From a virus (taxonomy: Duplodnaviria; Caudoviricetes): 48,580 nt of DNA. The position numbers and the translations under genes are program-made. Below, piece by piece: positions 5,846-46,584 of this stretch. Each line of letters begins with the position of its first letter. The first letter of the stretch is position 1. Under the pieces are notes generated by a model. The model worked only from the letters and a program-made list of their open reading frames with translations, did no database searches and was not told the origin of the DNA. Location: positions 1 through 48,580 of IMG/VR virus record IMGVR_UViG_3300020508_000071. One strand, given 5' to 3'.

Positions 5846-5907
5846 AATTAACCTCTATCGTGTTTATTTGAAACACAAAATTGACTCGCATAGAACTTAA
5901 AGATATC

Positions 5908-19915: not shown

Positions 19916-19927
19916 TTGAGGAGAGGT

Positions 19928-20620
19928 ATGCCTTTGTTATTTGAAGACGCTGGTCAACCAAAAACACGCAAATATCAATGTTTTGTATGCGGAAAGAATT
20001 TTGATTCATATGATGAATACAAGCAACATATAGTTGAATCTCACGATGAAGGTCGTGAATATATTACTTGTCCTGATTGCAAATCACCAGTGCGTGATTT
20101 GAAGCTTCATTATAAAACCAAACACCCAAACCGAGTCATGCCTAAAAACGTTCAATCACGAGTTGCGATTTGGCACGACTTTAAAGTGGGTAAAAATGGT
20201 AAATCCGAAAAGAAGTCAACTAGAAAGCCGTCTTTCAGACAAGGTACTTTTTCTTCTCGTAAATGCAATCGTGATTATGATTACAAATCAGGCATGGAGT
20301 GTGATTTCTTCGAGTGTTTGGAAGCAGACCTTGATGTTGTGAATTTTAGATATGAAGAAATAAAAGTGCCTTATTTTTTCCAAGGCAAATGGCATAATTA
20401 CATTCCCGATTTAAGAGTAGATTTTATCGATGGTTCGACAGAAATTTGGGAAATAAAACCTGCAAATCAAACGCATTACGAACAAAACAAATGTAAGTGG
20501 GCAGCAGCCAATAATTACTGCACAAATTTTGGATGGCAATTTGTAGTGCTAACAGAAGTTGGTTTAGGAAAACTTAAAACTAAAATAAAACGACAACAAG
20601 CTGATTTGATGAATGAATAA
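19928..20620 (+). CDS. C2H2 zinc fingers fused to a TnsA-N / T4 gp4-like PD-(D/E)xK nuclease
   Basis: CFVC..H...H and CPDC..H...H fingers; YKSGME, YIPDL, WEIKP, K..AA..YC and F.VLTE nuclease motifs. Confidence 0.8.
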   Translation: MPLLFEDAGQPKTRKYQCFVCGKNFDSYDEYKQHIVESHDEGREYITCPDCKSPVRDLKLHYKTKHPNRVMPKNVQSRVAIWHDFKVGKNGKSEKKSTRKPSFRQGTFSSRKCNRDYDYKSGMECDFFECLEADLDVVNFRYEEIKVPYFFQGKWHNYIPDLRVDFIDGSTEIWEIKPANQTHYEQNKCKWAAANNYCTNFGWQFVVLTEVGLGKLKTKIKRQQADLMNE

Positions 20621-20635
20621 TTGTAAATAAGGACA

Positions 20636-20980
20636 ATGTACGGGAGAGTTTTGTGTTGAAAACAGAATAGGCTATCGTTTGCCAAATGGTTTAAAAACAA
20701 CGATTCAATTGCCAAAAACATAACTGGCAAAGCGGTAAGTGATCCTACAATTGTTGCAGACAAAGTTAGGCAAAAACCAGTGGATTTGCACCTTATGTCT
20801 CAATGTGATGTAATTGATAATGCTAGATCATCCGCTACAAAAGTTTTTCAAAATGTTTTACAAAAAGATCCGTTCAAATTAGAAACTGACAAACAAGCAT
20901 TCAAAAGAGAAATATCAAATGCTGTTGATGGATTGGGCAGAGCACATATACTTTTATACTATTTAGCCAGAGGCTTTTAG
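20636..20980 (+). pseudogene. ORF interrupted by an in-frame TGA at codon 8
   Basis: TAAGGA SD before ATG 20636; reads MYGRVLC*KQNRLSFAKWF... and stays in frame with ORF 20780..20980. Confidence 0.45.
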
Positions 20981-21026
20981 TGTGTTTCTAATAAAAGAAG
21001 GCTGATTTGATGAATAATTAAAATAA

Positions 21027-21323
21027 TCAAATTTGCCATCGCCCTATGCGATAAAGTCGCTTACTTCCACATCGATTCAAAAACCGCCTCAATGGATTTG
21101 GTTCTGTAATGCACGAAATTCTTATTAAAAATGGACAGAAGCCAAACCATTTAATTTTTGCTTCATCACTCAAGTTATTGATGTAATCAAGTCGCTCAAT
21201 AGCTTCTGAAAGGCTATTGCATACTTGTTCATCAAAATATGATAAGTGCATAGAGTCTTTAAAATACTCTACTTGATACCTTTTTGGTCTCCACCAATTT
21301 GAAATATTTTCTTTAAAAGACAT
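21027..21323 (-). CDS. hypothetical protein
   Basis: Likely start MSFKENISNWW; the longer GTG-start extension overlaps the orphan repeat. Confidence 0.5.
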   Translation of the reverse strand: MSFKENISNWWRPKRYQVEYFKDSMHLSYFDEQVCNSLSEAIERLDYINNLSDEAKIKWFGFCPFLIRISCITEPNPLRRFLNRCGSKRLYRIGRWQI

Positions 21324-21363
21324 CGCTAAAATCTCTTTATTAAAAAACCAACTGACGAGATGG

Positions 21364-21398
21364 GTGCCAAATGTAAGCACAAATGTAAGCACAAAAAT
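21364..21398 (-). repeat. solitary degenerate Cas12i repeat with an internal 12-bp duplication
   Basis: Removing one CAAATGTAAGCA copy gives GTGCCAAatGTaaGCACAAAAAT, 19/23 identical to the array repeat. Confidence 0.6.
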
Positions 21399-21431
21399 AT
21401 GCTTATTTTATGAGCATGCATATCTGTTCAT

Positions 21432-21605
21432 AAAATAAAAATGGCTGTACTCTCCAGCCTGTGTTCGGTTCGGCTTCACCCGATTACCCCCTTTTCAAGT
21501 CATCCTCGTGTGTTGGCGAGAATAAGGGTCCTAGGGGCACCTCATAACCACTTCACGGACTTCGCTTGACTCAACGTTGTCACCGATAGCAGGTTTCGCA
21601 TAAGC
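21432..21605 (-). ncRNA. candidate structured ncRNA at the 3' end of the tRNA-like cluster
   Basis: GC-enriched non-coding stretch ending in GGCTG-GAGAGTA-CAGCC followed by ATTTTTATTTT. Confidence 0.4.
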
Positions 21606-21607
21606 AA

Positions 21608-21710
21608 TGAATTGGGCAGGATTTAAACCTGCTTACAACTACTAAGGCCAATAGTTGCTAAACCTTAAAGCCTCCAAGGTCATGCGTGTCCCCACCACGC
21701 CGCCAATTCA
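21608..21710 (-). tRNA. tRNA-like RNA with a non-canonical anticodon arm and a long variable arm
   Basis: Acceptor GAATTGG/CCAATTC, D stem GCGT/ACGC, T arm GCAGG-TTTAAAT-CCTGC and a 10-bp variable stem; no standard anticodon loop. Confidence 0.65.
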
Positions 21711-21712
21711 AA

Positions 21713-21780
21713 TATGTTAGACAGGATTCGAACCTGCGACTGGGAGCTACCCACGCTCTGACCAACTGAGCTACTAACAT
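21713..21780 (-). tRNA. tRNA-like RNA with a shrunken anticodon arm
   Basis: Acceptor ATGTTAG/CTAACAT, D arm GCTC-AGTTGGTCA-GAGC, T arm GCAGG-TTCGAAT-CCTGT; the anticodon arm is only TGGG-TAGCT-CCCA. Confidence 0.75.
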
Positions 21781-21806
21781 CCAGTAAGCATATAGCTTAC
21801 TACAGT

Positions 21807-21878
21807 TGTCTGGAATTACTTTCTTCTCCTGTGTAGCGACTCGAACGCAGCAGGCCACCTTACTAACAACTCCAGACA
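21807..21878 (-). ncRNA. T-loop-containing structured RNA
   Basis: Closing stem TGTCTGGAG/TTCCAGACA encloses GCG-TTCGAGT-CGC; not a cloverleaf. Confidence 0.5.
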
Positions 21879-21885
21879 TCTGCAA

Positions 21886-22004
21886 TGGGTCAGGCAGGAC
21901 TCGAACCTGCACAGCAAATACTCTCCGGTGATCAAATCCGTAACCATCTTTGCCCATAAGTATCACTTGATAAAAGTGACGCTCTGCCTTTAAGCTACCG
22001 ACCC
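21886..22004 (-). tRNA. tRNA-like RNA with nominal anticodon TAT (Ile) and a 52-nt variable region
   Basis: Acceptor GGGTCGG/CTGACCC, D arm GCTT-AAAGGCA-GAGC, anticodon arm TCACT-TTTATCA-AGTGA, T arm GCAGG-TTCGAGT-CCTGC. Confidence 0.75.
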
Positions 22005-22013
22005 CTGCAATTC

Positions 22014-22042
22014 ATGATATTCACGCCAAGTAACTCAGTCAA
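22014..22042 (-). promoter_or_regulatory. sigma70-type promoter of the tRNA-like cluster
   Basis: TTGACT-N17-TATCAT; predicted TSS near 22007, a few nt before the first element. Confidence 0.7.
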
Positions 22043-22068
22043 GTAAATTACAATTTATTCCCAATGTA

Positions 22069-22089
22069 TCGCCCAAATAATTTGGGCGA
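22069..22089 (-). terminator. hairpin after the cas12i stop
   Basis: TCGCCCAAA-N3-TTTGGGCGA; no clear U-tract. Confidence 0.45.
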
Positions 22090-22106
22090 GACAGAGAATT
22101 ATTTGT

Positions 22107-25100
22107 TTACTTTTTCTTGAAGTCTTTTTGAATATCGACCAAACCGACATTGTATGCCGCTACTAAATCTGCGTTACAAACCCAAAACTGTTTGCCATTC
22201 CAATTTACAGAGGTAGCGTCAGCATCAAGCTTGTAAGTTGCAAGATAAAACATGCCACCTCTAGAAGGAAACAATAATTGATCTTCGGAACGCTGATGTA
22301 GAATGTTGGCCATTATTTGCTTGAATTTCTCAAGACTAACTCCTAGCACATCATTCTTCTTCAAGCCATAAGTTGCAAGAAAGGCCATCGCACCTTCATT
22401 GTAATAGGCATTTGTCGGTCGTTTAGAAGGCTTATCGCTCAAAAAGCTCAAAATTTCCTTGCGATTTTTCTCAGTAAGTTCACTTGGAGTGCACCGACTG
22501 TACCTAGCTCTAAACGTATTTTCAGGGTTCTTGTGAACAAAAGGATCTTGGTGAGATGTGAAATTAGGATTTACTTCTACAAATTCAAGTCCTTGATGCA
22601 TCATTACCATTTCTTTGACTTTATTAGCCACACCGCGTGCTAGCCAGTCCATCAAAAAAGAATTGGTGCTTGACTTCTTGCCTTTCTTGGTCGTGTCAGA
22701 GATGTTTTCTCCCTTAATCAACACAGGCCCGTACTTGTCGCGAAGCTCAAGTGCCTTAGCAACAATCTTGTTCGCAATTACTTCTTTCTTAGACTTGACT
22801 TTGTTTAGTCGCTTCTCCTCCAAAGCCAACCTCAAAGCAAACATCTCAGGATCAGCTTTTTGCTTATCTTCATCAGTTATAGGCGGTGCCTTAACATCTG
22901 ACTTAGAATTCTTCGGCTTCTTAAGCAAGTGGCCAAAGTAAGTACCGATCAGAGATTTGGCAACTTTGAACATCACAAAAGAAAGATTGCTCAAAGATGA
23001 TAACTTCAAAACCGATAGTTTTCCGTCTCTTAACAATTCAAAAATCTCTTCACGATATTCTTTTGCTTGTGAAGAATGATTGCGAATGGACGATTGAAGC
23101 AGCTTGCAGTACTTCATATTGAAGTAATACAAAGAAGTTTCATCATCCGCAATAGCTTCAAAGTCTTTCATAAAGTCAATTTGAATGTTGTTTCCTCTGT
23201 TGTCCTTCATGGTGCCATTTCGGTATTTCTCCAAAAATGAACGTCGAGACTCAACATGAGGCTTGCAATACAAGAGCTTTACGCCATTGTAAGAGAGTTG
23301 ATCGTAAGATTTGTCTCGCACTTGACTTTCAACGGTTACAAATCCACTTTCAATAGGCTTCACGGGCAAGTCATTGTAGTCAATCACACCATCGCCATTA
23401 GCGTGAGCTTCTATGGCTGCGTAAGTGTTTTTGCGAACGATATTAGCATCGTACCCTAAAACAACCTTATAATTCTTTTCTTTTTTCTTTTTCACCTTCG
23501 TCGCAAGAGTGACTTCAAAATTGTTGCCACGCTTACAAATGTTTATGTTGAAATCTTTGCCCCAAGTGTATCGAGGCAAGAGATTTTGCTGTCTTGCAGC
23601 TTCGAGTCGCATTTGACGTTTTTTCACTTTTCTCAAACCGACTGGGGCTGATCTAATTTGTTCAATTTGCTCAGCAGACAACGCAGGCTTGCCTTCATAC
23701 CCATTAGTTTTAGTTCGGAAACGTGCTGCCAAAGCGTCTGGCGGATTTTCGGATGTGGCTGGATAATAGACCTCTTCCAAAAACCGCGTAGATGATAAAG
23801 CATAGTGATGCTTTTCCCATCGCATCGTTTTGGTGTTTAGTACTTTAATCTCAATCCAAATGTAATTATCAACCTGATTCCTGTTGCATTTGAGATTATG
23901 CTTTAACTTGTCTTTGGGGCTGATAATCTTTCCCAACAACTTAGAATTATTCCCAAAGTTGAAACTGGGATATTTTTGAATTACAGGATTGATTTTTTGT
24001 TTTTCAACCTTGTGTTTCTTGCTAAGGAAGGTAATGCCATCAATTATCTTATCAACAGCAATATCATCTTTTCTAGAGTAAAGATAACGCAAAAGCTGAA
24101 CTAAAGGAGTCTTAGCTTCCTTTCCTACTTCTTCACAATACGTATTGATTGTTTGGCAAACATCTCCTTGATAAACCTTAATGCGTTTCTCTTTTTTGTC
24201 TTCGCTCAAAGAAGCAATATCTTCTTCGTACTTAGAATGAATTGCATTCAAGTCTTCCCAGAGTGTTTTGATATTGCTTTCTCCAATATGATGTGGGTGC
24301 AAAACCCATTTCACATTGGTGTCGCTTTCAAAATATGGAGAGTCAAAAAACCCTTCAACAATTTTGCCAAATGGCTCATTTTCATACTTGATGTCGTTTT
24401 TGGCATCAATTTGCTTTAACACAAATTTGCAATTTTTTGTAGTCATTCCCTTGATGGGCGACAATGCATTTTCAAGCATCGCACTGTAAGAGCCTAGGTA
24501 ATAAGGCCCAACTTTGCTAGCTAAAAATGCTTTGATTTTTTCCATGCACTTCCATTCGCATTCATATTCAAATCTGCCCAATTTTTCTTTCAAATTTGCA
24601 ATCAAACTTGGCACATTCACTTCATCATCGTGATTGGTTCCCAGTTCATAGTCTTGAACGATCTTAAGAATGCTGGGTGTTGCTCCCTTACGAGAACATC
24701 GAATACGAAGCTTTCGATAACTATCGCAATCTCCTGCTTTCAAAATAATAGATGCCAACTGTTCAACAGAATTGATTTGAGTTGATTCCTCAAGTAGTTG
24801 GATAACCTTGCTATAGAATTGATGCTTGGTTTGGCGATTGTTTTTAGCTCCTGTCCCAAACATCACAGAAGTGATGTAGTGAGCCGTAGAAAGACTTAGG
24901 CCAATGCATTTTTCTTTGTACATGAGCTTCAAGTCATGATGCATATCACTTCTCGATAGCTGCAATTCAGCTAATAGTCGTTCGTATTCAACACGCATGT
25001 CCTTCCATTGATGCTTTTCGGTGTCAAAATTTGAAGCAAAATACTCTTGAGCTTGAATGTCTGGTTCTGATCCAGAGTATTGTTGAAAGAGGTTGGCAAG

Positions 25101-25388
25101 ATTTGATGGCGATACACCTTGAGGCTTAGAATTAATTGGCATTACCTTGAACCAATTGACCGCCAAAAGTAAATCATCTGATATCTTGTCTTTATTTGCA
25201 GTGCCAGAAATGATATCGCGGTCAATCCCGCCGCCAAACTGATTCCAAAGTTCGAAAAATATTGGCGTTCCATCCATCAAATAATCCATGAAATTCCCAA
25301 GCAATTTCATGCGATCATGGCTTCTTGGAATCATTTTTGTTGTGTAGGCTTTGCGAGTTTCGCTTGCATTTTTTTCTTTGTTAGACAT
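22107..25388 (-). CDS. cas12i: type V-I CRISPR effector Cas12i (Cas12i1)
   Basis: 1093 aa; split RuvC motifs VVLGYDAN, LIKGENIS and CNADLVAAYNV (D1074); adjacent array; N-terminus and length match my recollection of Cas12i1; AAGGA SD. Confidence 0.95.
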   Translation of the reverse strand: MSNKEKNASETRKAYTTKMIPRSHDRMKLLGNFMDYLMDGTPIFFELWNQFGGGIDRDIISGTANKDKISDDLLLAVNWFKVMPINSKPQGVSPSNLANLFQQYSGSEPDIQAQEYFASNFDTEKHQWKDMRVEYERLLAELQLSRSDMHHDLKLMYKEKCIGLSLSTAHYITSVMFGTGAKNNRQTKHQFYSKVIQLLEESTQINSVEQLASIILKAGDCDSYRKLRIRCSRKGATPSILKIVQDYELGTNHDDEVNVPSLIANLKEKLGRFEYECEWKCMEKIKAFLASKVGPYYLGSYSAMLENALSPIKGMTTKNCKFVLKQIDAKNDIKYENEPFGKIVEGFFDSPYFESDTNVKWVLHPHHIGESNIKTLWEDLNAIHSKYEEDIASLSEDKKEKRIKVYQGDVCQTINTYCEEVGKEAKTPLVQLLRYLYSRKDDIAVDKIIDGITFLSKKHKVEKQKINPVIQKYPSFNFGNNSKLLGKIISPKDKLKHNLKCNRNQVDNYIWIEIKVLNTKTMRWEKHHYALSSTRFLEEVYYPATSENPPDALAARFRTKTNGYEGKPALSAEQIEQIRSAPVGLRKVKKRQMRLEAARQQNLLPRYTWGKDFNINICKRGNNFEVTLATKVKKKKEKNYKVVLGYDANIVRKNTYAAIEAHANGDGVIDYNDLPVKPIESGFVTVESQVRDKSYDQLSYNGVKLLYCKPHVESRRSFLEKYRNGTMKDNRGNNIQIDFMKDFEAIADDETSLYYFNMKYCKLLQSSIRNHSSQAKEYREEIFELLRDGKLSVLKLSSLSNLSFVMFKVAKSLIGTYFGHLLKKPKNSKSDVKAPPITDEDKQKADPEMFALRLALEEKRLNKVKSKKEVIANKIVAKALELRDKYGPVLIKGENISDTTKKGKKSSTNSFLMDWLARGVANKVKEMVMMHQGLEFVEVNPNFTSHQDPFVHKNPENTFRARYSRCTPSELTEKNRKEILSFLSDKPSKRPTNAYYNEGAMAFLATYGLKKNDVLGVSLEKFKQIMANILHQRSEDQLLFPSRGGMFYLATYKLDADATSVNWNGKQFWVCNADLVAAYNVGLVDIQKDFKKK

Positions 25389-25618
25389 GGTATTCCTTAG
25401 TAAGTTTTAAGTGCCGTGGTAGGCCGTAATTGTAGTTGGAATTGTAGTTGTGATTGATTTCAATCAAAACAAGTTGCCAGATTTTGGCGTGAAAAAAGAT
25501 GTGTAAGCAATTCAAAGGTTAACGCATAATGAAGGCTCCTTTCAAGTCATGAGAAAAATAGACACCTCTATGATGCTTTTTTGATCGGAGTAGTCTAGCA
25601 ATTTTTCCGAAACTATTA

Positions 25619-25720
25619 CTAATTTCTTTGGTCGTGCTTGTCTTTCAGCCTAAAGATATAAGCGAAAAACAAAAAAACCAATATAAGCGAAGAAATCGCA
25701 GCCATTACGTCTACATTCAT
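25619..25720 (-). CDS. 33-aa single-transmembrane peptide (not in the ORF track)
   Basis: MNVDVMAAISSLILVFLFFAYIFRLKDKHDQRN: hydrophobic helix followed by a charged tail. Confidence 0.45.
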   Translation of the reverse strand: MNVDVMAAISSLILVFLFFAYIFRLKDKHDQRN

Positions 25721-25826
25721 ATTTGTTTACCAAAAAAATTGAAATGCGTGAGTTTGCTCTTATCGAGTCGTAAATTTTTATAAAAATTTAGTGTGACTTG
25801 TAAATATTAGGGTTTGTGCCGTTTCC

Positions 25827-26569
25827 GTGCCAACGATGGGCACAAAAATTTTCTCTACACTCCTCGACCACGTAGATCGTGCCAACGATGGGCACAAAAA
25901 TTGCCATTTAAACAACCGCACAATTGAAAACCGGGAATGTCTCGGACTGGTGCCAACGGTGGGCACAAAAATTAGTCATTCTAACATTTCTGTCAATTCG
26001 GCAATCGGATGTTGTTGCCATGTGCCAACGGTGGGCACAAAAATTAGTCATTTCAACGCTCATAAGCCGGTAGTTGATACCAACAAGTCAGAGGTGCCAA
26101 CGGTGGGCACAAAAATTAGTCATTCCAACCCCACGCTCATCGTGCTTTGATGCGGTCTCAGCGATCCGTGCCAACGGTGGGCACAAAAATTAGTCACTCC
26201 AACGGGCAATGGAAGAAGGAGTATGGTATACTTAAAGTCAAAGGGAGTGCCAACGGTGGGCACAAAAATTAGTCAATCCAACTGCGATGGGAAAGCTGAC
26301 TTCAAAGTGTTTTTGGGTGTGCCAACGGTGGGCACAAAAATTAGTCATTCTAACACGGCCCCTAAAAAACAACTGCACCTAACCTGCAAGTGCCAACGGT
26401 GGGCACAAAAATTAGTCATTCCAACATACCATGAGCGGTTCGAAAATGAGGATGACTTCGGGTGCCAACGGTGGGCACAAAAATTAGTCATTCCAACGTA
26501 ACTGCTAGGTGGTAGAGTGCGGCAGACTAGCAGGTGCCAACGGTGGGCACAAAAATTAGTCATTCCAAC
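25827..26569 (-). CRISPR. CRISPR array, 11 repeats and 10 spacers; consensus GTTGGAATGACTAATTTTTGTGCCCACCGTTGGCAC (36 nt)
   Basis: Repeats start (+ coordinates) at 25827, 25879, 25950, 26022, 26094, 26168, 26247, 26319, 26390, 26462 and 26534; spacers are 28-43 nt, mostly 36; 3' stem GTGCC/GGCAC; degeneration increases toward 25827. Confidence 0.99.
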
Positions 26570-26603
26570 CCTTTAGTTATAAGTACTGATCTGACTATGG
26601 TTT

Positions 26604-26632
26604 ATAGTAGGTTTTGCGAGCACCCAAGTCAA
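26604..26632 (-). promoter_or_regulatory. CRISPR leader promoter
   Basis: TTGACT-N17-TACTAT; predicted TSS about 28 nt before the first repeat. Confidence 0.7.
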
Positions 26633-26776
26633 GGCTGTGCTGCAAAAAATTTATATGTTTTTTATTGCAAATTTTTCACCTATGCATCGTGTTGCCATAG
26701 AGATCGTACCTTTGCCGTGCAAATTCATCGCAGTAAGAATCGGTTATTTTTCTATCTACGCTTTTCAAATCCGATA

Positions 26777-26980
26777 TTATTCCTCATCTTGATCTTTGTC
26801 GTCGCTATTGCAAGCTTGACCAAGATAAAATATTGTTGCACAGTCCAAACACTCATAAGGTTTAGCTTCGTCATAATATTCTGTGCTAGAATGGCATTCC
26901 TCAGCTACATATAACTCACCGCCATTAGGGCTCTGATCACCGTTCTTTATATTTTGATTACCGCAGCTTGGGCAATACAT
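26777..26980 (-). CDS. small zinc-ribbon protein
   Basis: CPSC...CLDC; AAGGAGA SD. Confidence 0.65.
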   Translation of the reverse strand: MYCPSCGNQNIKNGDQSPNGGELYVAEECHSSTEYYDEAKPYECLDCATIFYLGQACNSDDKDQDEE

Positions 26981-27103
26981 TGCTGTTCTCCTTGTATACT
27001 ATCTTGTGTTCTGTTAAGCACCCGCATAATCATAAACACATCAAGGCAATAATATTCCTTAGGGACTACATCTATAGTCAATTCAAGGTGCCAAAGATCA
27101 TGC

Positions 27104-27415
27104 TTAAAACGATTCGATGTCACCAGAAGTTTTAATTGTGCGACGATCATCAGGATTTTCAACGTTTACACACTCAACAAATTGTCCGCCTTTTATGAGG
27201 GAGGGAAATTTTCGAACTTTTTCTCCCAAAACACCAATACGCATTTGGCAACAAACAGGATTCAAAGACTGATAGGGCACAAAAGTCTCAGGATCTAAAA
27301 TGATAGTCTTTTCCAAAAAATCTAAACCATATATCTTCCATAGATTCTCTCCCAACTGAAATTCACCCAAAAACTGAAACTCATTTTGCGAATCTATCTT
27401 AAGTTCACTCATCAT
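27104..27415 (-). CDS. hypothetical protein
   Basis: 103-aa ORF. Confidence 0.55.
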   Translation of the reverse strand: MMSELKIDSQNEFQFLGEFQLGENLWKIYGLDFLEKTIILDPETFVPYQSLNPVCCQMRIGVLGEKVRKFPSLIKGGQFVECVNVENPDDRRTIKTSGDIESF

Positions 27416-27532
27416 TTTACATTTCTTTCAAAAAAGTTTTAAACAAATTACATTATTAAACCCACCGCAAAAAATGCAGTTGATCTTAAAAGCCAACCAA
27501 TATTTTCTTCATCACTTGATCGCCACTTCATT

Positions 27533-28186
27533 TTAAAGGCTTTCTTCTTTTATTTTCTTTCCATTCTGCCACCATTCTTTGTATCCATCTGCACGTTCAA
27601 CGGCACGTTCAACGGCAGGGCCATTTTTTCTATGACGCTCGCCATTTAAATACCAATGTTTATCTCCATTAAGACATTCAATAGCAGCCCCATCTTCTCT
27701 GTGAAGATTTCCATTATGCCACCAAGCTTTAGCTCCATCTACATACTCAATGGCAGGTCCATCTTATCTGTGAAGCTCTCCATTTAAATACCAATATTTA
27801 TCTCCATTTGGATACTCAACAGCAGGCCCATCTTGCCTGTGACGTTGGCCATTTAAATACCAAACTTTATACCCATTTGTGTATTCAATCGCAGGGCCAT
27901 CTTCCCTGTGAAGCAACCCATTTAAATACCAAGATTTATATCCATTTGACCATTCAACAGCAGGGCCATCTTCCCTGTGAAGCAACCCATTTAAATACCA
28001 TTTTTTGGTTCCATCTAAGCATTCGATTCTTACAATTTGTTTGTTAACAGTAAAGTATTTATCTTCGCCTAAGAAAAAGCAATCCTCCTTTGAATTATTT
28101 TCAACTTTTGAAAAGCTAAAATCAAATAAGGGCAAACAAAATAGAGAAAAAACGTTTCTACGCAACATATCTGTAAATCCTTGCAT
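27533..28186 (-). pseudogene. 23-aa repeat protein (WYLNG.LHREDGPA.E) with an internal nonsense codon
   Basis: 69-bp repeats continue in frame past the TAA at 27764..27766 (HR*DGPAIE...) to the TAA at 27533. Confidence 0.8.
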
Positions 28187-28400
28187 TTAAAAAATGGAAT
28201 GCAGTAAAAAAATTGATAATTTATAGGAACTGCTTATGCCTAAAAGCCATTGAACAATTGCTGCTGTAAGCAATTTAAATTTATACTGTCGGCATAACAA
28301 GCCAAGTGTTATTGTGTTTAAATTCGGTATTGCTTTACCAAATAATTTTCAATTATAGTAAAACTTTTCATATATTTTAGTTTTTATAGCATAAAGTTAC

Positions 28401-28637: not shown

Positions 28638-28825
28638 GTTTATTCCTCATTTGGCGATTTTCCTGTCTTGTCAACAAGAGTTCTTGTCAAGGGTGGTAAA
28701 AATGCTATTTCAATTCTTTGAAGAGCAGATACTGATCTGTTTATATTTTATAGCAGGATTTATAAGATTTCAAGTCAAAGTGCTTCAGAGAAATTATTGA
28801 TTTAAAAACATGAAAATATTGCTGG

Positions 28826-29080
28826 TTATATTTCTTCGTGTGATTTAAAAAGCTCCGATACACTAGGGTGCTGTGCTTTTAGTTCTTGAATTTTTTGATT
28901 AGCTTGTCTTTCAAAGATCTCTGTAGATTCTTTTTTGACCTGTGCAAATTCATCAGGCTTGATGATCCCTTGTTTGTACAAAATCATTTTTAGAGCTAAA
29001 TTTTCTACTAACAAAAACTTGATCATATCTGGGTTCAAATAGAACGCACCTTTTGCAATCTTGTCTATGTCTGTGTGCAT
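28826..29080 (-). CDS. hypothetical protein
   Basis: 84-aa ORF with a GAGGA SD. Confidence 0.6.
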   Translation of the reverse strand: MHTDIDKIAKGAFYLNPDMIKFLLVENLALKMILYKQGIIKPDEFAQVKKESTEIFERQANQKIQELKAQHPSVSELFKSHEEI

Positions 29081-38565: not shown

Positions 38566-39834
38566 TTATTCTTCATTTTCTGAAGTATCTTCTTCGTCGC
38601 TTTCGTTGTCGTAACCTTCAGTCTCAAAGGGATTTCCGTCAGCATCAAAATCAACTGTTTTCTCGCCGTATTCGCCGCTTTCCGATGCTTTTAGACCTGC
38701 TCCCCAAAAGCCAAGATATTCTTCAACTTCATCAGAAGTTTCTGCATCTACAAGTTTAGGGCAGTCAATAATAACCTGAGATGGTAATCTATTCTCGGCT
38801 TTGCTAGCCTTGAACTTGTACTCTGTTGTCCCTTCAGGAAGATATGCTGGCTTTACGATGTAATTGCCACCACTCTTCATTTCTACTCTTTCGCCTTCGA
38901 GAAGACAATTGAGCAAGCCAGACATTGGGTCAATTCCATTTTCAAAATAAAGCTTCACATCATCTGCAATAACAAAAGGTCGGAATCCACGATTCTTTAT
39001 GTTCTTGACTTGCATGTTAATGCCACTAAACTTCTCAAGTTTTTTATGCTCGATTTTTTTCTTAGCAGCAGTTCTGATTCTTAAAGATGCGTAAAATTTG
39101 ACTGCATTACCACCCGGAGTAGTTTCTGGCGAACCATACATGACTCCAATCTTATCTCTCGTTTGATTGATAAGATATACAGTTACATCTTGCTCTTTTA
39201 CCATGGCTTGCAGCTTACGCATCTCGTTGCTAATTACTTTAGCACGCTCACCGGGCTGCTCTTGGCGACCAACTATTTTCTTCCAGTCCGCAACGCTGTA
39301 ATCAAGAGGAAGATTGTTTTCTTTTAATTCACGTTCACACGGAGGAACGGTCAAGCTATCAAAGACAAACAATATTGGTTTTCGCTCAAGCTTCAATTCT
39401 TTTTCACGTTCTCTAATCTTTTTCGTAGTAACGTGAATTTGACGAAAGGCTCTTTCAAGACTTGGAGGACTGTAACGTAAAACTCTTTTCAAATTCAAAT
39501 GGCTAATCTTTTTCATAAACTCGCCATTCGTGGCATTCTCGCAATCAAGAATTACCGGCCATCCGCCTTGCTTTTGCATAGATCCTAGCAAATTGGCACC
39601 AATCAATGATTTGCCAGAAGCCTCTCCACCAAAAGCCTCTGTTATTCTGCCTCCGGGAACACCTCCGGGAATGCATTTACCAGAACAAGAATAATTGATA
39701 GCCAGATTTCCCGTATCAATTCGGAATTTAACACTTTCAAGATCAGATAAAACATCTCCTCCAGTCTCTGATGCCAATGTACTAAACAATTCGTCTAAAT
39801 CCATGTCTTCCGCATTTGTTTTCTTTTTCGCCAT
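38566..39834 (-). CDS. RecA/UvsX-like recombinase
   Basis: IDTGN, GRITE.FG.EASGKS, FVFDSL, INQTRDKIGVMYGSPETTPGGNAVKFYASLRI. Confidence 0.93.
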   Translation of the reverse strand: MAKKKTNAEDMDLDELFSTLASETGGDVLSDLESVKFRIDTGNLAINYSCSGKCIPGGVPGGRITEAFGGEASGKSLIGANLLGSMQKQGGWPVILDCENATNGEFMKKISHLNLKRVLRYSPPSLERAFRQIHVTTKKIREREKELKLERKPILFVFDSLTVPPCERELKENNLPLDYSVADWKKIVGRQEQPGERAKVISNEMRKLQAMVKEQDVTVYLINQTRDKIGVMYGSPETTPGGNAVKFYASLRIRTAAKKKIEHKKLEKFSGINMQVKNIKNRGFRPFVIADDVKLYFENGIDPMSGLLNCLLEGERVEMKSGGNYIVKPAYLPEGTTEYKFKASKAENRLPSQVIIDCPKLVDAETSDEVEEYLGFWGAGLKASESGEYGEKTVDFDADGNPFETEGYDNESDEEDTSENEE

Positions 39835-39863
39835 AATTGTATTTTCTCCGTTAAAAGTTGTTC

Positions 39864-39893
39864 AAAAAAATGGGCGGCGTTTCCGCCGCCCAT
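39864..39893 (-). terminator. intrinsic terminator
   Basis: ATGGGCGGCG-GAAA-CGCCGCCCAT followed by a U-tract. Confidence 0.9.
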
Positions 39894-39917
39894 AAGGTTC
39901 GCTATCAGGCTAAATTT

Positions 39918-40955
39918 TTAGCCTTCCATGCCTTCAAGTTCCTTGAGGAAATCTTCGTCCTCAATTGACAAGTCCTCGCTTGGAGGAGCAGAGACTTTAA
40001 GACTTTCAGTTTTGGTAACTACTGGCTTGCTTGAAGGAACGCCTTCAGGAACACTGACTTGTGTTCTATTGCTTGCCTGTTCAGCCATTTCTTGCACTTC
40101 ATCAGAAGCTTTCTTGCCCCACTTTGCATCAAATGTCTCGATGTCCATCGATTCGGTTTCATCAGCGATAAGACCACGATGAATTGCCAACTCTTTTTCA
40201 AGATAATCGACATCTTTGGGGTTTCGAAGCTTGGTAAGATCGTGGAGGCTTGCAGCCCACTTAGCAACTTCTTCTGGGGTGCCAGCAGGTGATGGATTGC
40301 GTGCAAAGCCAGATGAATCGTACTTTGGAAAACCATCTTGCCCAAGAGTAACAGCCTTGCGAATGATGAAATCATATCCATTCTTCAAGTCGGCAATATT
40401 TCCAAGCTTAGAATCAGGATCTCCTTCATTTCCAACGATAGCTTTGATGATCATCGAATGGAGAATCTTGCCCACAGAAAGAATTCTTGGACCAACATTC
40501 TTGATTTCCTTATTATCGACCACCATAGTGCGTACAACAGCGTTGTAGTAGTATCGCTCAACTGGCTTGAGTTCACGAGCTTCCGCCTTCAAAGCTTCGG
40601 CTTGTGGGCAATCCTTGCCAAATTGCTTTTCAATTTTCTCAATTTGTTTCCACAGGCTGCTGTAATAGTCGCAAATCGGACATGGGACATTACGTTCCCA
40701 CTTTCCATTTACTAATGGTCTTGGGCAATGAACGCTACGGTTGTTGATTTTGTGAGTGCGATTGTACTGAAAAAGCTTTCCGCCTTTAATTGGCGGAAGA
40801 ATTCTTACAGCAACAGATCCCGTTTGTCCCGGTTTTACTTCTGGCATCGGTACAAATTGGTCCAGAAAACCACCTGCACCAGCACCACCTTCATTGGCTA
40901 GACGAGCATCCTCGCCTGCCATTTCTTCTAAATTCAATGTTCCAAATTCAGCCAT
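39918..40955 (-). CDS. T4 gp32-like single-stranded DNA-binding protein
   Basis: VRILPP, CPICDY, RYYYNAVVR, GYDFIIRK and YDSSGF motifs, acidic tail; adjacent to the recombinase. Confidence 0.85.
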   Translation of the reverse strand: MAEFGTLNLEEMAGEDARLANEGGAGAGGFLDQFVPMPEVKPGQTGSVAVRILPPIKGGKLFQYNRTHKINNRSVHCPRPLVNGKWERNVPCPICDYYSSLWKQIEKIEKQFGKDCPQAEALKAEARELKPVERYYYNAVVRTMVVDNKEIKNVGPRILSVGKILHSMIIKAIVGNEGDPDSKLGNIADLKNGYDFIIRKAVTLGQDGFPKYDSSGFARNPSPAGTPEEVAKWAASLHDLTKLRNPKDVDYLEKELAIHRGLIADETESMDIETFDAKWGKKASDEVQEMAEQASNRTQVSVPEGVPSSKPVVTKTESLKVSAPPSEDLSIEDEDFLKELEGMEG

Positions 40956-41030
40956 AGTAATCCTCCGTACTTTTTAAAAAGTTTGTAATTGTAAATTCAT
41001 CGTCATGGCTTTGACGTGAACAACAGTAAT

Positions 41031-41059
41031 CTTATAGAAGTTATCGGAGAATAAGTCAA
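41031..41059 (-). promoter_or_regulatory. possible sigma70-type promoter for the SSB gene
   Basis: TTGACT-N17-TATAAG. Confidence 0.45.
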
Positions 41060-41086
41060 GAATCTTTAAGGCAAATATTTAAAATC

Positions 41087-41584
41087 TTAAGTTGTGCTTA
41101 TTTCTTCATGACCGGGAGCCTTGCTTATTGTTACTTCTGCTACTTCTTTTCTTGGCTTTTGAACATATTGTGCTTCAGGCAAAGACTCAAACCCAGCAGA
41201 TTGCTGATCGTTAGCTAACTGATTATGTAGATAACTGAGTTTATCATTCAACTCAAACAGTCCTTTAGATTCTAAATCTAAATTTATCTTTCTCCTTTTT
41301 TCTAGGTTTTCTTCATATTCATTCTCCAAAGCTTGAAGAATCTTTGCGTTTTTCTCCAGTTGGGTTAAAGTCGCATCGTTCATGTTCATCAAAAGCTCAT
41401 CAGAATATTCAGCAACGCCTGTCATGGCCTTCCTAAGCTTAGAAACACGCTTAAACTTCTTGTTCAATTTGTTTTCTAGGATCTTTGGTGCTCGCAATGC
41501 ATCTCTCCGTGCAAGAACCTTCTTTCGAGCTTCTTTTTCGTGTTCTTTTTTCTTTTCAAGCTTTCTTTTGGTTTTGTTATCCAT
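41087..41584 (-). CDS. basic coiled-coil hypothetical protein
   Basis: 165-aa ORF with an AAAGGA SD. Confidence 0.65.
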   Translation of the reverse strand: MDNKTKRKLEKKKEHEKEARKKVLARRDALRAPKILENKLNKKFKRVSKLRKAMTGVAEYSDELLMNMNDATLTQLEKNAKILQALENEYEENLEKRRKINLDLESKGLFELNDKLSYLHNQLANDQQSAGFESLPEAQYVQKPRKEVAEVTISKAPGHEEISTT

Positions 41585-41616
41585 GATTTTCCTTTCTAAT
41601 TTTTAACTTCAAAGTA

Positions 41617-42498
41617 TTATCGACGTGATCGCAAATCAGGCACAGCCAAAAGATCGTCTGGAATACTTCCATCATCTATCGGAAAACTGCGATTAGACGA
41701 ACCATAAGCTCTCGGATCTGATGTGTCCATGACCATTTCGTCTTCAAATGCGAGCTTCGGTTTTCTGACATCTCTTCCACTTGAACCTGAAAAGTTAAGC
41801 TGCTTGTCAGCAAGCAGCCCCGTTCCTGATGCAATAAAAAACTTCTCTTCGACAATCGCAACCTTACCACTATCATCCGTTAGTGCAATTTTTTGCAATT
41901 CTAATTTACCAGTTGGGTGCTGTACAACTTGGTGAACATTATATTCTTTATCAGGTGTTAACTTTAATCCCAGCTTTCTTGTTTCAGGCATGTAATGCGG
42001 AGCAGGATCAAAAATAACCTTGTACATAACTCTATTTTGATTAATTGGAGGCAAAGGAGCTTTTTTCACTGGCACGGGCTTGTTTGCATTAACATACAGT
42101 GAATCTAAGTTTTGCGTTTGATTTTGCATAGCAACCATTTCATGTGGTTGCATATTAGATGTAACTTGCATTTGAGGAACAGAAATTTCCTCAACAATGT
42201 CTTCAGCAATCATTTGGGCCGCTTCATTGAAAGAATATCTTTTACCCTTGAGCGTGATTCCCTTGCCATCTTTACATTCTTTGAAATTGATTTCCTTTTT
42301 TACCAATTCAAAAACCTGCACATCAATAACCCAAATGTCTCGTCGTGCAAGAAGTGCCATAATTGCAGCAGCCGCCTTTTCAAGAGGAGTATCATCAAGT
42401 GACTTGCCAACTTTTAAAATTTTTTCTTCTTTGTGCTCTGTATCATATACACCCCCTTCTTTTCTTGGGTGGTAAGTATATTTGACTTCGAATCCCAT
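41617..42498 (-). CDS. hypothetical protein
   Basis: 293-aa ORF with a GAGG SD. Confidence 0.75.
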   Translation of the reverse strand: MGFEVKYTYHPRKEGGVYDTEHKEEKILKVGKSLDDTPLEKAAAAIMALLARRDIWVIDVQVFELVKKEINFKECKDGKGITLKGKRYSFNEAAQMIAEDIVEEISVPQMQVTSNMQPHEMVAMQNQTQNLDSLYVNANKPVPVKKAPLPPINQNRVMYKVIFDPAPHYMPETRKLGLKLTPDKEYNVHQVVQHPTGKLELQKIALTDDSGKVAIVEEKFFIASGTGLLADKQLNFSGSSGRDVRKPKLAFEDEMVMDTSDPRAYGSSNRSFPIDDGSIPDDLLAVPDLRSRR

Positions 42499-42508
42499 AT
42501 TTGCCTCT

Positions 42509-43108
42509 TTATCTGATCACAATTCCAATTCCATACCTTGTCTTAAATAAGACAGGTTCTCTATTTTTTATTTGACAAAACCTTTGAAAGCTCGCAAAGA
42601 TCTGAGTGTCATGAATGTAATCAACAACTAAAAAACCATCAGGCTTTAAGCAATTCCATAATAAATCTAATGAAATTTCAGTCTTTTTGATGTCAAAGCT
42701 TTCGGAAAGAAATGCCATATCTGCTACTTTTTCTACGTTTGTATCAAAATTCTTAGTAGAAAAATCCAAATCTTTTATGGTAATTTTTGGACATCCAGCT
42801 AACTTTAAGTTTGATTCTACAAACCTAGAATTTTGATTTTTTCCATCGAAAGATATCCACTCACGAACGGTTTTGCATCCTTTTATAAAACAAGCTCCGA
42901 CCAATCCTAAATTACAGCCTATTTGACATACCACTTGCGGATTAGATTCCATTCCTAAGCGAAAATAAAATGGCAAATAATTAGGATCGCTAAATGCTGG
43001 AGATTGTTTTGAAGAATTGTTTGGCAATTTTACTTGCGGCAATAAAACATCCGTAGAAATAGAATGGTTCAAAAACTTTGAGTTTAATTCTTCAAGATTG
43101 CAATACAT
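42509..43108 (-). CDS. divergent methyltransferase-fold protein
   Basis: QIGCNLGL and LKPDGFLVVD resemble class I methyltransferase motifs. Confidence 0.55.
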   Translation of the reverse strand: MYCNLEELNSKFLNHSISTDVLLPQVKLPNNSSKQSPAFSDPNYLPFYFRLGMESNPQVVCQIGCNLGLVGACFIKGCKTVREWISFDGKNQNSRFVESNLKLAGCPKITIKDLDFSTKNFDTNVEKVADMAFLSESFDIKKTEISLDLLWNCLKPDGFLVVDYIHDTQIFASFQRFCQIKNREPVLFKTRYGIGIVIR

Positions 43109-43146
43109 AAAATAAAAGAGCGTCAAGAATTTATTCTTGACGCTCT
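43109..43146 (-). terminator. intrinsic terminator-like hairpin
   Basis: AGAGCGTCAAGAAT/ATTCTTGACGCTCT inverted repeat followed by TTTATTTT on -. Confidence 0.75.
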
Positions 43147-43280
43147 GGCAGATGGTGTTTGTTGAGACATCTTGTCTCGATAGCCGCAGTCAATGTTGTT
43201 TTTGTTAATCACTTTACAAAAGAACACTTGCCATCTTAAATAAAATAGTGGTCAATACACAAAAAATTTTTGGAGCACAA

Positions 43281-43547
43281 ATGGATACAATTGATGAAAT
43301 GATGTATTTGGCAGGAGTAATATCTGAAGAAACTATTCAAGAAGCAAAAAATGATATCAAACATTATATGTTTTTCTCAAACTTGCACACAATCAAAGAA
43401 AAAGTAGACAAGCTCTTATCCATGGATCAAAAGAGAATTGATAAAATGTTGGATGATGGTCATGATTGGGCCGCAGAGCATGTTGCCACAAGCAAAGATG
43501 ATTTAGAAGAAGTGTACAACTGGATCTCTTCTTCGTTTAGGAATTAA
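43281..43547 (+). CDS. conserved large-phage hypothetical protein
   Basis: GGAG SD; YMFFSNL...GHDWAAEH pattern. Confidence 0.65.
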   Translation: MDTIDEMMYLAGVISEETIQEAKNDIKHYMFFSNLHTIKEKVDKLLSMDQKRIDKMLDDGHDWAAEHVATSKDDLEEVYNWISSSFRN

Positions 43548-43992
43548 ATCTAGAATTGTGAGCTTCTAAGATTTTATTGTAAACATAAGTATTTGGTGTG
43601 TACTTCTTAAAGTATACCCTATCGGTGTTTGGTCCCCATAAAGAAACCGCTAAAGCCGCAGCTACAGCAGGGGAACGCGATGCCCCAAATTCACAATGAA
43701 CAAGCAAACACTCAATTTTTGGCAAAACCTCATAGGTAAAATCAATAATTTGATTTGCTTGCAAGTCGGTAAAATTATTTGGATCTTCAAAATTTCTATC
43801 AAGAAAGCACAAGCGTAGCACATCCACTCTATGATCTTCATTTAAATCCGCAAACATGCCTTCATCTGAAGATATAGAAATAGCCGCCCAAGCAACATCT
43901 GATTTGAACTGTTTGGCTTTTGACTTAGACATAACTTGAATATCAATTATTTTATTATTCATTTTTTCGCCTTGAAATTTCATGAATGACAT
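43537..43992 (-). CDS. predicted protein-tyrosine/dual-specificity phosphatase
   Basis: CX5R motif VHCEFGASRS, plus AISIS and PN..VY. Confidence 0.85.
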   Translation of the reverse strand: MSFMKFQGEKMNNKIIDIQVMSKSKAKQFKSDVAWAAISISSDEGMFADLNEDHRVDVLRLCFLDRNFEDPNNFTDLQANQIIDFTYEVLPKIECLLVHCEFGASRSPAVAAALAVSLWGPNTDRVYFKKYTPNTYVYNKILEAHNSRFNS

Positions 43993-44330
43993 GTTGGTAT
44001 TGAGGTAATGTCTCTTAGCAACTGTCTATCTTTTTGGAACTCTTCATCACCTTCAATGTCTTTAAACAACTGAATAATATCGGCATCGACATCAGAATCA
44101 ATAGAGTAAAAGTATGACGTGTTTTTCCTAAAATCTATGGTAATAACCCCATTATGGTAGTTTTTGCTTATATTTAAGTCCCATACATCTTCCCCCACAA
44201 TATATGTAGACAAATATGTATTTGGAGACACTCTGTTCCAGACCATACCGCAACTCTTGAGCTTTTCTACCATCTCTAAAACAGATGTTTTACGATATAT
44301 TAAATCTAAATTTTCGTTATTTGTTGTCAT
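43980..44330 (-). CDS. hypothetical protein, paralog of 19523..19915
   Basis: EKLKSCGMVW motif. Confidence 0.7.
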   Translation of the reverse strand: MTTNNENLDLIYRKTSVLEMVEKLKSCGMVWNRVSPNTYLSTYIVGEDVWDLNISKNYHNGVITIDFRKNTSYFYSIDSDVDADIIQLFKDIEGDEEFQKDRQLLRDITSIPTCHS

Positions 44331-44369
44331 GAGCTTTATTGAAATTTGTTACATGGAAAGGATAAATCA

Positions 44370-44906
44370 TCAAATTAGTCCATCGATTCCAAGACTATGA
44401 TCAAAGCCAGAATTGTCGTCAAATGAACCAACTGCTTTTGAAACATCTTGATCTAAAGTTGATCCTTGCCACCCTGCATTTCCTAAGATGTCTGAATTCA
44501 ATCGATCCATTTGCTTTCTCAGCATATGACCCATGCTCTGAGCATTATCGTGACTCTTATCCCAAGCTTTTAAGTGATTCTTCAGGCGATTGACCACAAA
44601 TCTAGCTTCGACAATATCACTTCTAAGAGAAGTTACGGTAGGGTCGCATTTAGCTTTTGCCTCTGCAAGCTTGTCACTTGCACCCATTTCCTTGGCTTCA
44701 ACAAAACGTTCACAATAAACTTTTTCCTGCATGTTTTCTTTGTTTTGCAAATTACGCTCAGCCAAAGCTAAGTAATTTCCGAAATTGTCATAGTATCCAC
44801 CTTCAGTTTGAATATATCGACTCAAGGTGTCTTCATCAAATCGCAAATACTCAGGGTCAATGTTGACAGAAAACTTGTCAAATGTAATTTTTTCTACTTT
44901 TCCCAT
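44370..44906 (-). CDS. UvsY-like recombination mediator (putative)
   Basis: Helical coiled-coil pattern (SDKLAEAKAKCDP) and position beside the helicase. Confidence 0.55.
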   Translation of the reverse strand: MGKVEKITFDKFSVNIDPEYLRFDEDTLSRYIQTEGGYYDNFGNYLALAERNLQNKENMQEKVYCERFVEAKEMGASDKLAEAKAKCDPTVTSLRSDIVEARFVVNRLKNHLKAWDKSHDNAQSMGHMLRKQMDRLNSDILGNAGWQGSTLDQDVSKAVGSFDDNSGFDHSLGIDGLI

Positions 44907-44991
44907 TTTTACCTCTTACTTATGCCAAATTCGGCTATTTTACTTTTGTTATGATTTTTTGTAAAGAATTAATCTGACTAAAGAAAAAACG

Positions 44992-46584
44992 CTATTTTTC
45001 TTCATCTTTTTGATTGTAAACTTCTGAAAAACTTTCCCATCCTCCATCGCCTTCCATGGCTACGCCACTAATAGAGTCATCTATTTCATCCTTTGGCTTC
45101 CATGCTTTCTTGTTTTTATCGATGTCACGAACCATGTCGGTTTCAACCTCAGACGAGGCATATTCTTTATGAGAATTCAAACGCAACTTGTATTCATTGT
45201 GATGTATTTCTTGAATTTTAAGACTTTCCTTATCAAATGATAGGTAAATCTGATAGCGGCTTTTACCATCACGTTGTTTTACTACATATCCACGCCCAAT
45301 GCCCAAAAACTTTTCTGTATCATTTTGGTTAAGAGAAATACAGCCATCGAGAGGACGTATTTGACCATATGAATCAGCTAAGTGATCATCATCTAAACGA
45401 CCTTTATCTCCCTTGCCATCCTTCTTGCCATCTCTATTTGGTTGCATAGCTGTGGCTATAAACAACTTTTCTTCCATGGCCATTCCACGCAATTCACGGA
45501 CATTTCTTTCTCTCGATTCTGGCGTCTTCATTTCAGGATGAAGTGCCATTTCTCCAACATAATCAAGAATTACAAAGTCTGGATCAAATCCTTGAAATCG
45601 TAATTGACTAATGTAGGCTCGAATAGTGTTTACCGTTGCGGTTCCAGCGGGGAATTGCTTGATAATGAGAGGTCCAATTTCCGAATTCAAATCGACATTT
45701 TGTAAATTCTCCAACCTCTTAAAAATGTCATCCTTGTTGTCCAGCAAATTTTGAACTGGTAAACCTGTAAGAATTGCATCCATTCGATCAGCAACTTTTG
45801 GCTCTGCCAGTTCAAGTGTTATATAAACGCCTTTCTTGCCGCGACACAAGTTTGTTGCAGCCAGACATGCAAGCATAACTGATTTACCAACACCTGAGCC
45901 AGCTATAATTGATACAATTTCACCACGGCTGTATCCGCCACCACCTATTTCAGAATCAATAGATGGTAGGCCAAAAATAAAACGATCCTGAGTGTCTGTA
46001 GTTTCTGCTTTTTCAGCATATCGTTCTTGAAGACTCTTAAAATAGTCCATGCCTAAGTCAAAGTTTTGCTGCGTCTGCATGGCTGTACGCATTTCGTCAT
46101 AAACTTTAGACCATGTCTCTTCCGATTCTGGTGCCTTGTCAATTAGCTTTAATGAGTCTTGAAAAGCTTTCTTAACTGACTGTATTTTTGCAAAACATAA
46201 TATTTTGTCTTGTAAATACTCTCTAGCTTCTAATCCCGGTTGGAAATAATCAAACAAAACATTGACTTCACCTAAATAAAACGACAATGCTTTGTTGTCT
46301 TTTAACTGAGTTTTTATTTCGCTTACAAGAAAGTCTTTACGAGGTAAAATTCGGTATTTCTTAAAAAAGTTGAAAACAATTTCGCAAATCTTAGCATGGG
46401 CTTTGTTGGTGAAGTAATTTGGCTTCACAATATCGATTGACTGGAGCAAAAATTGTCTATCAGAAATTAACAGCGATGTAATGTGTCTCTGAAAGTCTTC
46501 GTCCCAAGAATACTTAGAATCGACACTCGCATCAGGATCAACTAATGTGGGGTCATCTAAAAACTGTTCATCACTCATGAGCAC
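44992..46584 (-). CDS. DnaB / T4 gp41-like replicative helicase
   Basis: Walker A AGSGVGKS, YITLEL, IIKQFP, ILDYV, TAMQPNR and KQRDG motifs. Confidence 0.92.
   Translation of the reverse strand: MLMSDEQFLDDPTLVDPDASVDSKYSWDEDFQRHITSLLISDRQFLLQSIDIVKPNYFTNKAHAKICEIVFNFFKKYRILPRKDFLVSEIKTQLKDNKALSFYLGEVNVLFDYFQPGLEAREYLQDKILCFAKIQSVKKAFQDSLKLIDKAPESEETWSKVYDEMRTAMQTQQNFDLGMDYFKSLQERYAEKAETTDTQDRFIFGLPSIDSEIGGGGYSRGEIVSIIAGSGVGKSVMLACLAATNLCRGKKGVYITLELAEPKVADRMDAILTGLPVQNLLDNKDDIFKRLENLQNVDLNSEIGPLIIKQFPAGTATVNTIRAYISQLRFQGFDPDFVILDYVGEMALHPEMKTPESRERNVRELRGMAMEEKLFIATAMQPNRDGKKDGKGDKGRLDDDHLADSYGQIRPLDGCISLNQNDTEKFLGIGRGYVVKQRDGKSRYQIYLSFDKESLKIQEIHHNEYKLRLNSHKEYASSEVETDMVRDIDKNKKAWKPKDEIDDSISGVAMEGDGGWESFSEVYNQKDEEK

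Follow-up and report, generated by a model that had tools for sequence, protein, structure and literature searches.

A native Cas12i1 locus as probable cargo of a likely giant freshwater phage

Results

The Cas12i1 locus

The IMG/VR virus record IMGVR_UViG_3300020508_000071 (Duplodnaviria; Caudoviricetes), analysed over its full 48,580 nt (48.6 kb; hereafter the window), carries a compact type V-I CRISPR locus consisting of a single effector gene, cas12i1, and a short array with its leader (Table 1). A search of the PDB with the 1093-aa open reading frame (ORF) returned Cas12i1 (6W62 and 7D3J) over the full length at 2499 bits, with no differences in the 957 residues printed, while Cas12i2 scored 356 bits; among the PADLOC models, Cas12i reached 1391 bits and Cas12b 17 bits. 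Judged by sequence, the ORF is Cas12i1 itself, a known genome-editing nuclease, as a preliminary description of this DNA had proposed from the letters alone. The three RuvC motifs named in that description are all in place, at residues whose mutants are inactive in Cas12i1 (PMC8190297).

Nine of the 11 repeats are full 36-mers (0–1 change), the three on the leader side being perfect copies, while two copies at the trailer retain only the 3' 24 nt; nine of the spacers measure 35–43 nt and the last 16 nt. Read on the minus strand, the repeat ends in 23 nt (A at -23, U at -22 to -18, G at -17 through to C at -1) that agree with the published CRISPR RNA (crRNA) handle of Cas12i1 (PMC8190297). This agreement sets the orientation: the array lies on the minus strand like cas12i1, and its leader is on the side from 26570 upwards. 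The spacing of ~440 bp between the effector and a co-oriented array, given beforehand, was measured as 438 nt on the same strand. Two reported absences were also upheld. Within the 48.6 kb there is no anti-repeat of the kind expected of a trans-activating CRISPR RNA (tracrRNA), the best match to the repeat outside the array being 12 nt (E = 0.062), and six-frame searches of the whole record for Cas1, Cas4 and Cas2 were empty (positive controls found in 7, 8 and 6 of 14 genomes).

Below, W01 denotes a 595,163-bp GenBank phage, G001–G007 the records compared, L numbers loci and X1–X4 DNA runs. The claim that the array has its own leader promoter held in part: a promoter-like site is present, yet it matches the consensus at 9 of 12 positions and the region has 9 such sites against 13.1 expected. 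The promoter is a weak point, such sites being fewer than chance in this region, and the call draws instead on a near copy at 28730–28778 (minus strand; 73% over 49 nt, without the CTCG-n-AA motif) and on a similar site in the leader of locus L035. A candidate motif, CTCG-n-AA, occurs ~50 nt before the first repeat in all four V-I leaders (the window, L035, L038 and L040, of which L038 and L040 are related), and all four arrays have 36-nt repeats in the same hairpin frame. Separately, a contig of run X1 matches the repeat hairpin at window position 26341 and then continues into a different leader-like sequence, which suggests that the water sampled held another array related to this one.

Table 1. 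Coordinates of the features of the window discussed in the text.
Feature	Coordinates	Strand	Remarks
cas12i1, 1093-aa type V-I effector	22107..25388	-	RuvC D647/E894/D1074 and processing-pocket H497/H528 intact
Gap between array and cas12i1, 438 nt	25389..25826	-	no anti-repeat, no Rfam match
CRISPR array	25827..26569	-	11 repeats (36 nt; 3' 5-bp hairpin), 10 spacers; trailer end = 25827
Leader	26570..26679	-	promoter-like site 26632-26604; motif 26620-26614, ~50 nt before first repeat
Spacer	26130..26167	-	exact target in X1-X3, PAM TTC; encodes N-terminal part of a large serine recombinase
Spacer	26204..26246	-	target in X1-X4 (5 differences/44 nt in X2, X4), PAM TTC
Spacer	26426..26461	-	foreign PAM-distal flank, X1-X3
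Leader-proximal spacer	26498..26533	-	foreign PAM-distal flank, X1 and X2
Non-coding cluster	21443..22042	-	promoter-like site 22042-22014, three tRNA-like folds, terminator-like site 21459-21443
tRNA-like fold	21886-22004	-	Rfam alignment needs 49-nt insert
tRNA-like fold	21713-21780	-	anticodon stem 4 bp, loop 5 nt
tRNA-like fold	21607-21710	-	anticodon stem 9 bp, loop 3 nt
Lone degenerate copy of 23-nt crRNA handle	21364..21398	-	17/23 direct, 19/23 skipping one 12-nt duplication
98-aa ORF, no known family	21027..21323	-	40 nt downstream of lone handle
Handle-shaped hairpin	5860..5882	-	14 nt before spoVR start codon; 12/23 handle identity
TnsA-like/head-closure gene	19916..20620	+	conserved left border of variable slot
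84-aa gene	28826..29080	-	conserved right border of variable slot in G003, G004
T4-like replication module (UvsX-like recombinase, gp32-like SSB, replicative helicase)	38566..46584	-	marks backbone as phage
PAM, protospacer-adjacent motif; SSB, single-stranded DNA-binding protein.

The carrier genome

CheckV puts the completeness of the record at ~10%, which by arithmetic implies a genome of ~490 kb. From 141 ORFs of at least 60 aa, 65 likely genes were chosen and scanned; they include a gp32-like SSB, a UvsX-like recombinase, a helicase, a deoxynucleoside monophosphate (dNMP) kinase, DnaE, PrkA-YeaH-SpoVR, ThyA, DHFR and HldE, with no ribosomal protein and no capsid or terminase gene among them. 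Phage-type replication genes with no ribosomal core among the 65 ORFs scanned are one of the marks expected of a huge phage. A search of viral contigs with the SSB found 11 loci (6 distinct) that are 63–89% identical with a conserved gene order, and the five contigs checked are each 7–14% complete. Among GenBank phages, the SSB, PrkA and helicase all have W01 as their best match, in which 19 of the 65 window proteins are collinear within 41 kb; a Gp23 capsid gene is present in W01 and in G006. The four largest contigs among the best 120 PrkA relatives are 613–691 kb long, and a 167-kb metagenome contig that carries the Cas12i1 locus at 100% identity was assigned to the same phage. With the window at 48.6 kb, this contig at 167 kb and a collinear relative at 595 kb, the record is likely a fragment of a giant, 500-kb-class freshwater phage. 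Four studies include DNA runs from lakes and freshwater in which the same phage was found, with more than half of the sampled words matched, and one of them may be where the window came from; none of the runs listed as carrying it is an RNA run.

The many cell-like genes (dnaE, prkA-yeaH-spoVR, hldE, thyA) and a window free of virion genes would also suit a bacterial chromosome or island, on which the CRISPR system would be an ordinary cellular defence locus. This origin is already largely refuted and extremely improbable, given a virus record with gp32-like SSB and UvsX-like genes, its collinearity with a capsid-bearing 595-kb phage and the lack of ribosomal proteins in the ORFs scanned. The jumbo-phage setting suggested in the preliminary description stands on the ~10% completeness of the virus record and on the backbone shared with W01. 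The proposed look for terminase and capsid genes came back empty in the window, though Gp23 is present in the collinear phage, and of the cellular signs named there, neither ribosomal genes (among the 65 ORFs scanned) nor an own cas1-cas2 (in the 48.6 kb) was seen.

A variable slot and the Cas12i family

Within a slot of 8.2 kb (20620 to 28826), cas12i1 and the array are accompanied by small ORFs, tRNA-like RNAs and a repeat protein. In G003 and G004 the slot is 1.8 kb long and lacks an array; it contains three genes, one of them a MotA/ExbB member (the three-gene membrane block with this member is at 10121–11908 of L022). In W01 the TnsA-like gene is ~0.3 kb from the dNMP kinase gene, and Cas12i was not found in that genome. 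The slot is thus filled otherwise or empty in three relatives, and the CRISPR system is therefore read as cargo. As a sign of a CRISPR-associated transposon the TnsA-like gene was rejected, since relatives that lack CRISPR have it too, as a conserved part of the backbone. The repeat protein of the slot (27540–28186, minus strand) is built from 69-nt repeats encoding 23-residue units; the repeats extend past the ORF stop, and their copy number differs between contigs.

The Cas12i family is small, with 48 clusters among 1.84 billion. A Cas12i motif scan gave one viral, eight metagenome and two GTDB hits, of which five were true Cas12i, all outside GTDB, and false hits made up four of the eight in metagenomes and both in GTDB; the motif fits 11 of 37 aligned proteins, so that absence from GTDB is weak evidence. 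Two of the five true hits are the phage described here. Of the other loci, L035 belongs to a 70-kb virus record (G006) with Gp23 and no Cas1, where Cas12i lies 2 kb from the same TnsA-like gene, on its other side; L040 has head protease and major head genes within 10 kb of Cas12i; and L038 is 6 kb long with uninformative neighbours. No close relatives of Cas12i1 were found in viral contigs, in GenBank phages or via the repeat motif, and a word search for such relatives returned two proteins.

Spacers and natural targets

Using assembled contigs of five runs mapped to the locus, targets were taken, among the loose ends listed, as contigs that match a spacer and then continue into foreign sequence. 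For at least four of the nine full-length spacers, co-occurring lake DNA contains a target; a fifth (26058–26093) has a partial match in X1 (at 26070, the PAM-side part only). Both targets with a visible PAM side carry TTC, which, in a small sample, fits the TTN PAM of Cas12i1 named in the preliminary description; TT at two of two targets has a chance of ~1 in 250 at equal base use. A spacer search of phages and plasmids gave chance matches only (E of 3 or worse), no spacer matched G001–G007 or W01, one spacer piece and one spacer-derived motif had no match in viral contigs, and no self-target was found for the array spacers in the window.

The spacer at 26130–26167 translates to 13 residues. 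A motif from this peptide gave four viral hits, of which the one relevant hit is a frame of 497 aa that combines Resolvase, Recombinase and zinc-ribbon domains. At position 45, 106 of its 120 best relatives agree with the peptide in 10–12 of 13 residues; for the other eight spacers, in any frame, the agreement with the recombinases is at most six residues. Both flanks of the target continue the recombinase pattern (EIVRLF before and TFKEL after, by eye). The sequence match shows that the target is a gene for a large serine recombinase, a type that occurs at the end of integrative elements. The family has more than 1400 close members, Planctomycetota wherever named, and the recombinase relatives with an organism label are Planctomycetota in 12 of 13 cases and ‘bacterium’ in one. 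At L054 (1–4400) a coupling-protein-like ORF (by eye) precedes the recombinase gene, and the region ends at a tRNA 3' fragment, an arrangement that would correspond to the layout of an integrative element. The target gene, whose named relatives are planctomycetal, points to an integrative element and to a candidate host phylum, and the host is probably a planctomycete.

The earlier suggestion that the system targets competing elements is therefore supported by one spacer with a match to a large serine recombinase gene. Three of the four targets are without a gene family, host-gene targeting by huge-phage arrays has been reported (PMC7162821), and an integrated element is itself part of the chromosome; the guides might accordingly hit mainly the host chromosome or defence genes in a host takeover, with the recombinase match incidental. 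We regard this as rather unlikely, as the one assigned target belongs to a recombinase family that in L054 has a coupling-protein-like neighbour and reaches up to a tRNA fragment.

Proposed function and the source of the guides

The best explanation, which we consider probable, is a native Cas12i1 locus carried as phage cargo that likely cuts rival mobile DNA in a probable planctomycete, with guides that likely come from host Cas1-Cas2. Minus-strand transcription of the array likely starts at the leader promoter, and Cas12i1 alone would cut the transcript into 43-nt crRNAs, as the same protein has been shown to do without a further RNA partner (PMC8190297). Cas12i1 would then open DNA at a TTN PAM and cut both strands; TTN recognition and cleavage of double-stranded DNA, with cuts at 13–15 and 24 nt, are published for the enzyme (PMC8190297), and the two readable natural targets in the same waters carry TTC. 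Cutting the recombinase gene would be expected to disable a resident or incoming element, and use against integrative elements in a planctomycete is suggested by this one target.

Any new spacers would be supplied by a type I adaptation module of the host, one selecting for TTC, in line with the borrowing of host Cas1-Cas2 suggested in the preliminary description. Such a module is proposed because of the TTC PAM, the spacer length and the leader motif. TTC is the commonest PAM of type I-C and occurs also in I-B and I-G (PMC8482600), and phased leader motifs guide type I Cas1-Cas2 (bioRxiv 10.1101/2023.05.26.542337). Host machinery would not be needed if the phage carried its own cas1-cas2(-cas4) elsewhere, and the record is ~10% of the genome; since Cas1 was found neither in G006, the Cas12i record of 70 kb, nor in the 595 kb of W01, and a published Cas12i phage is listed without Cas1 or Cas2 (PMC7162821), we judge this very unlikely.

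Several observations weigh against the proposed function. The spacers of L042 are identical to those of the window array, no new spacers were found at the leader end among the X1–X4 contigs listed (runs dated 2016 and 2024), and the leader-end contigs in X1 and X3 differ from the window by one letter. The exact-match target persists in three runs. One target has a gene family and two PAMs were read, the host phylum draws on a single target family, the window shows no virion gene, and a phage cas1 could lie in the ~90% of the genome beyond the record. Neither a host array nor a host cas1 was found, although no search aimed at host arrays was made. As rare variants are lost from contigs, the evidence against an active array is weak, but it is earlier turnover alone that has been demonstrated.

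The ten shared spacers of L042, the lack of any joint or new leader spacer in X1–X4 across 2016 and 2024 and the drift of one target by 5 of 44 letters would all be explained if the nuclease were intact and the array frozen, its spacers dating from an ancestral host and since then without turnover, as a fixed weapon or a relic. This is a serious but on balance unlikely alternative: rare variants drop out of contigs, the three perfect leader-side repeats and the leader motif have been kept, and one target is still an exact match.

Lone handles and tRNA-like RNAs

Handle-like sequences occur in the window outside the array. A strict scan gave three such matches against 0.2 expected (maximum of 1 in 15 shuffles), and a looser scan gave five against 1.3 expected (maximum of 5 in 60 shuffles). 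The left boundary of the region in the preliminary description, 21364, is the end of the lone degenerate handle, which that description does not mention. The hairpin before spoVR is absent in four relatives. In G003 (L007, ~11062–11097) a handle with a Cas12i1-type stem stands before the uvsX ribosome-binding site and is absent in relatives; G003 and G004 have one handle each, no more than chance, and no lone handle was found in G001, G002, G006 or 70 kb of W01. L040 has an exact lone handle at 6287–6303, 1.4 kb from its array.

Directly downstream of cas12i1 lie three tRNA-like folds that have a T-arm stem in common. All three depart from a canonical tRNA (5-bp anticodon stem, 7-nt loop and normal variable region) in the anticodon or variable arm; two pass the Rfam tRNA cut-off, and the third is a cloverleaf matched by none of 200 shuffles. 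No Rfam families beyond tRNA were found in the non-coding cluster, and positions 21460–21604 fold no better than shuffles (78 of 200). In one fold, 20 of 21 nt are identical to the tRNA fragment that closes the L054 element (E = 0.027), a match that T-arm conservation alone may explain. No tRNA-like RNAs were seen beside the other three Cas12i genes. Two other identities for the cluster were rejected: a Y RNA (YrlA at 18 bits against a cut-off of 69) and a tracrRNA, there being no complementarity to the repeat.

A broader reading, which we hold to be unlikely as a whole, would make type V-I chiefly a weapon of one huge-phage family of Planctomycetota against integrative elements that insert at tRNA genes. 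On this reading the cassette would comprise more than nuclease and array: the tRNA-like RNAs would act as mimics or decoys linked to these tRNA attachment sites, and through the lone handles Cas12i1 would bind or trim mRNA leaders of the phage itself.

Other features of the window

The PrkA-YeaH-SpoVR gene set (4244–10653, minus strand) is retained across the phage family, with relatives 52–76% identical. A DnaE homologue (1896–3317, minus strand) is only 473 aa long, with a PHP and part of a polymerase domain, and the remainder is not adjacent. A 2H phosphoesterase (17583–18266, minus strand) scores 26.8 bits, just below the Pfam cut-off of 27 for Acb1, which counters cyclic-oligonucleotide-based antiphage signalling (anti-CBASS). 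At the contig end (1–140, plus strand), a 12-nt tandem repeat encodes an acidic Gly-Met-Asp tract.

Discussion

Phage-borne type V-I systems without adaptation genes were already known, having been published in 2020, and it is the context that is new here: the variable slot, natural targets with TTC, the recombinase target and the shared leader motif. The literature search found no account of the native context or targets of Cas12i1; its coverage of subscription papers was thin, and supplements may state a phage origin. The locus links a genome-editing nuclease to a huge phage and supplies a natural PAM, a first natural target class and a candidate host phylum, which puts two questions within reach of tests, namely the opponents of phage-borne Cas12i and the identity of the host Cas1-Cas2 that supplies its array. 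If most Cas12i turn out to be phage genes, new orthologues would best be mined from this phage family.

The enzyme itself is no different from the Cas12i1 of the published structures (PDB 6W62, 6W5C, 7D3J, 7D2L; PMC8190297), with which it shares the protein sequence and the 23-nt crRNA handle; the native phage context and the natural targets come from the present analysis. Huge phages reported by Al-Shayeb et al. (2020; PMC7162821) carry type V-I systems nearly all without Cas1, Cas2 and Cas4, and Table S1 of that work includes a 307,553-bp Cas12i phage without Cas1 or Cas2 and with SpoVR, PrkA and DnaE. Cas12i on a large phage, with a short array and no Cas1 or Cas2, is common to both; the present locus differs in placing the prototype Cas12i1 on such a phage, in its natural targets and PAM, and in a slot that is empty or replaced in relatives.

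Cas12r of the Thermus Lalka phages (bioRxiv 10.64898/2026.04.20.719267) is likewise a phage type V system without adaptation genes or tracrRNA, whose spacers hit integrative elements and for which acquisition by host type I systems has been proposed, the same logic with experiments. Cas12r has 564 aa and an A-rich PAM and is found on small temperate phages with tyrosine integrase targets, whereas the effector here has 1093 aa and a TTN PAM and lies on a huge phage with a serine recombinase target. The type I-F system of the Vibrio phage ICP1 (PMC11656645) is also CRISPR cargo; it occupies a swappable anti-defence locus and targets a chromosomal island, but unlike the present locus it is multi-subunit and has its own Cas1-Cas2/3. 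Lone repeat copies in a phage genome recall viral single repeat units and RNA anti-CRISPRs; the lone handle here, in contrast, corresponds to the system of the phage itself rather than to a known host system and is located in an mRNA leader, where any role would be putative.

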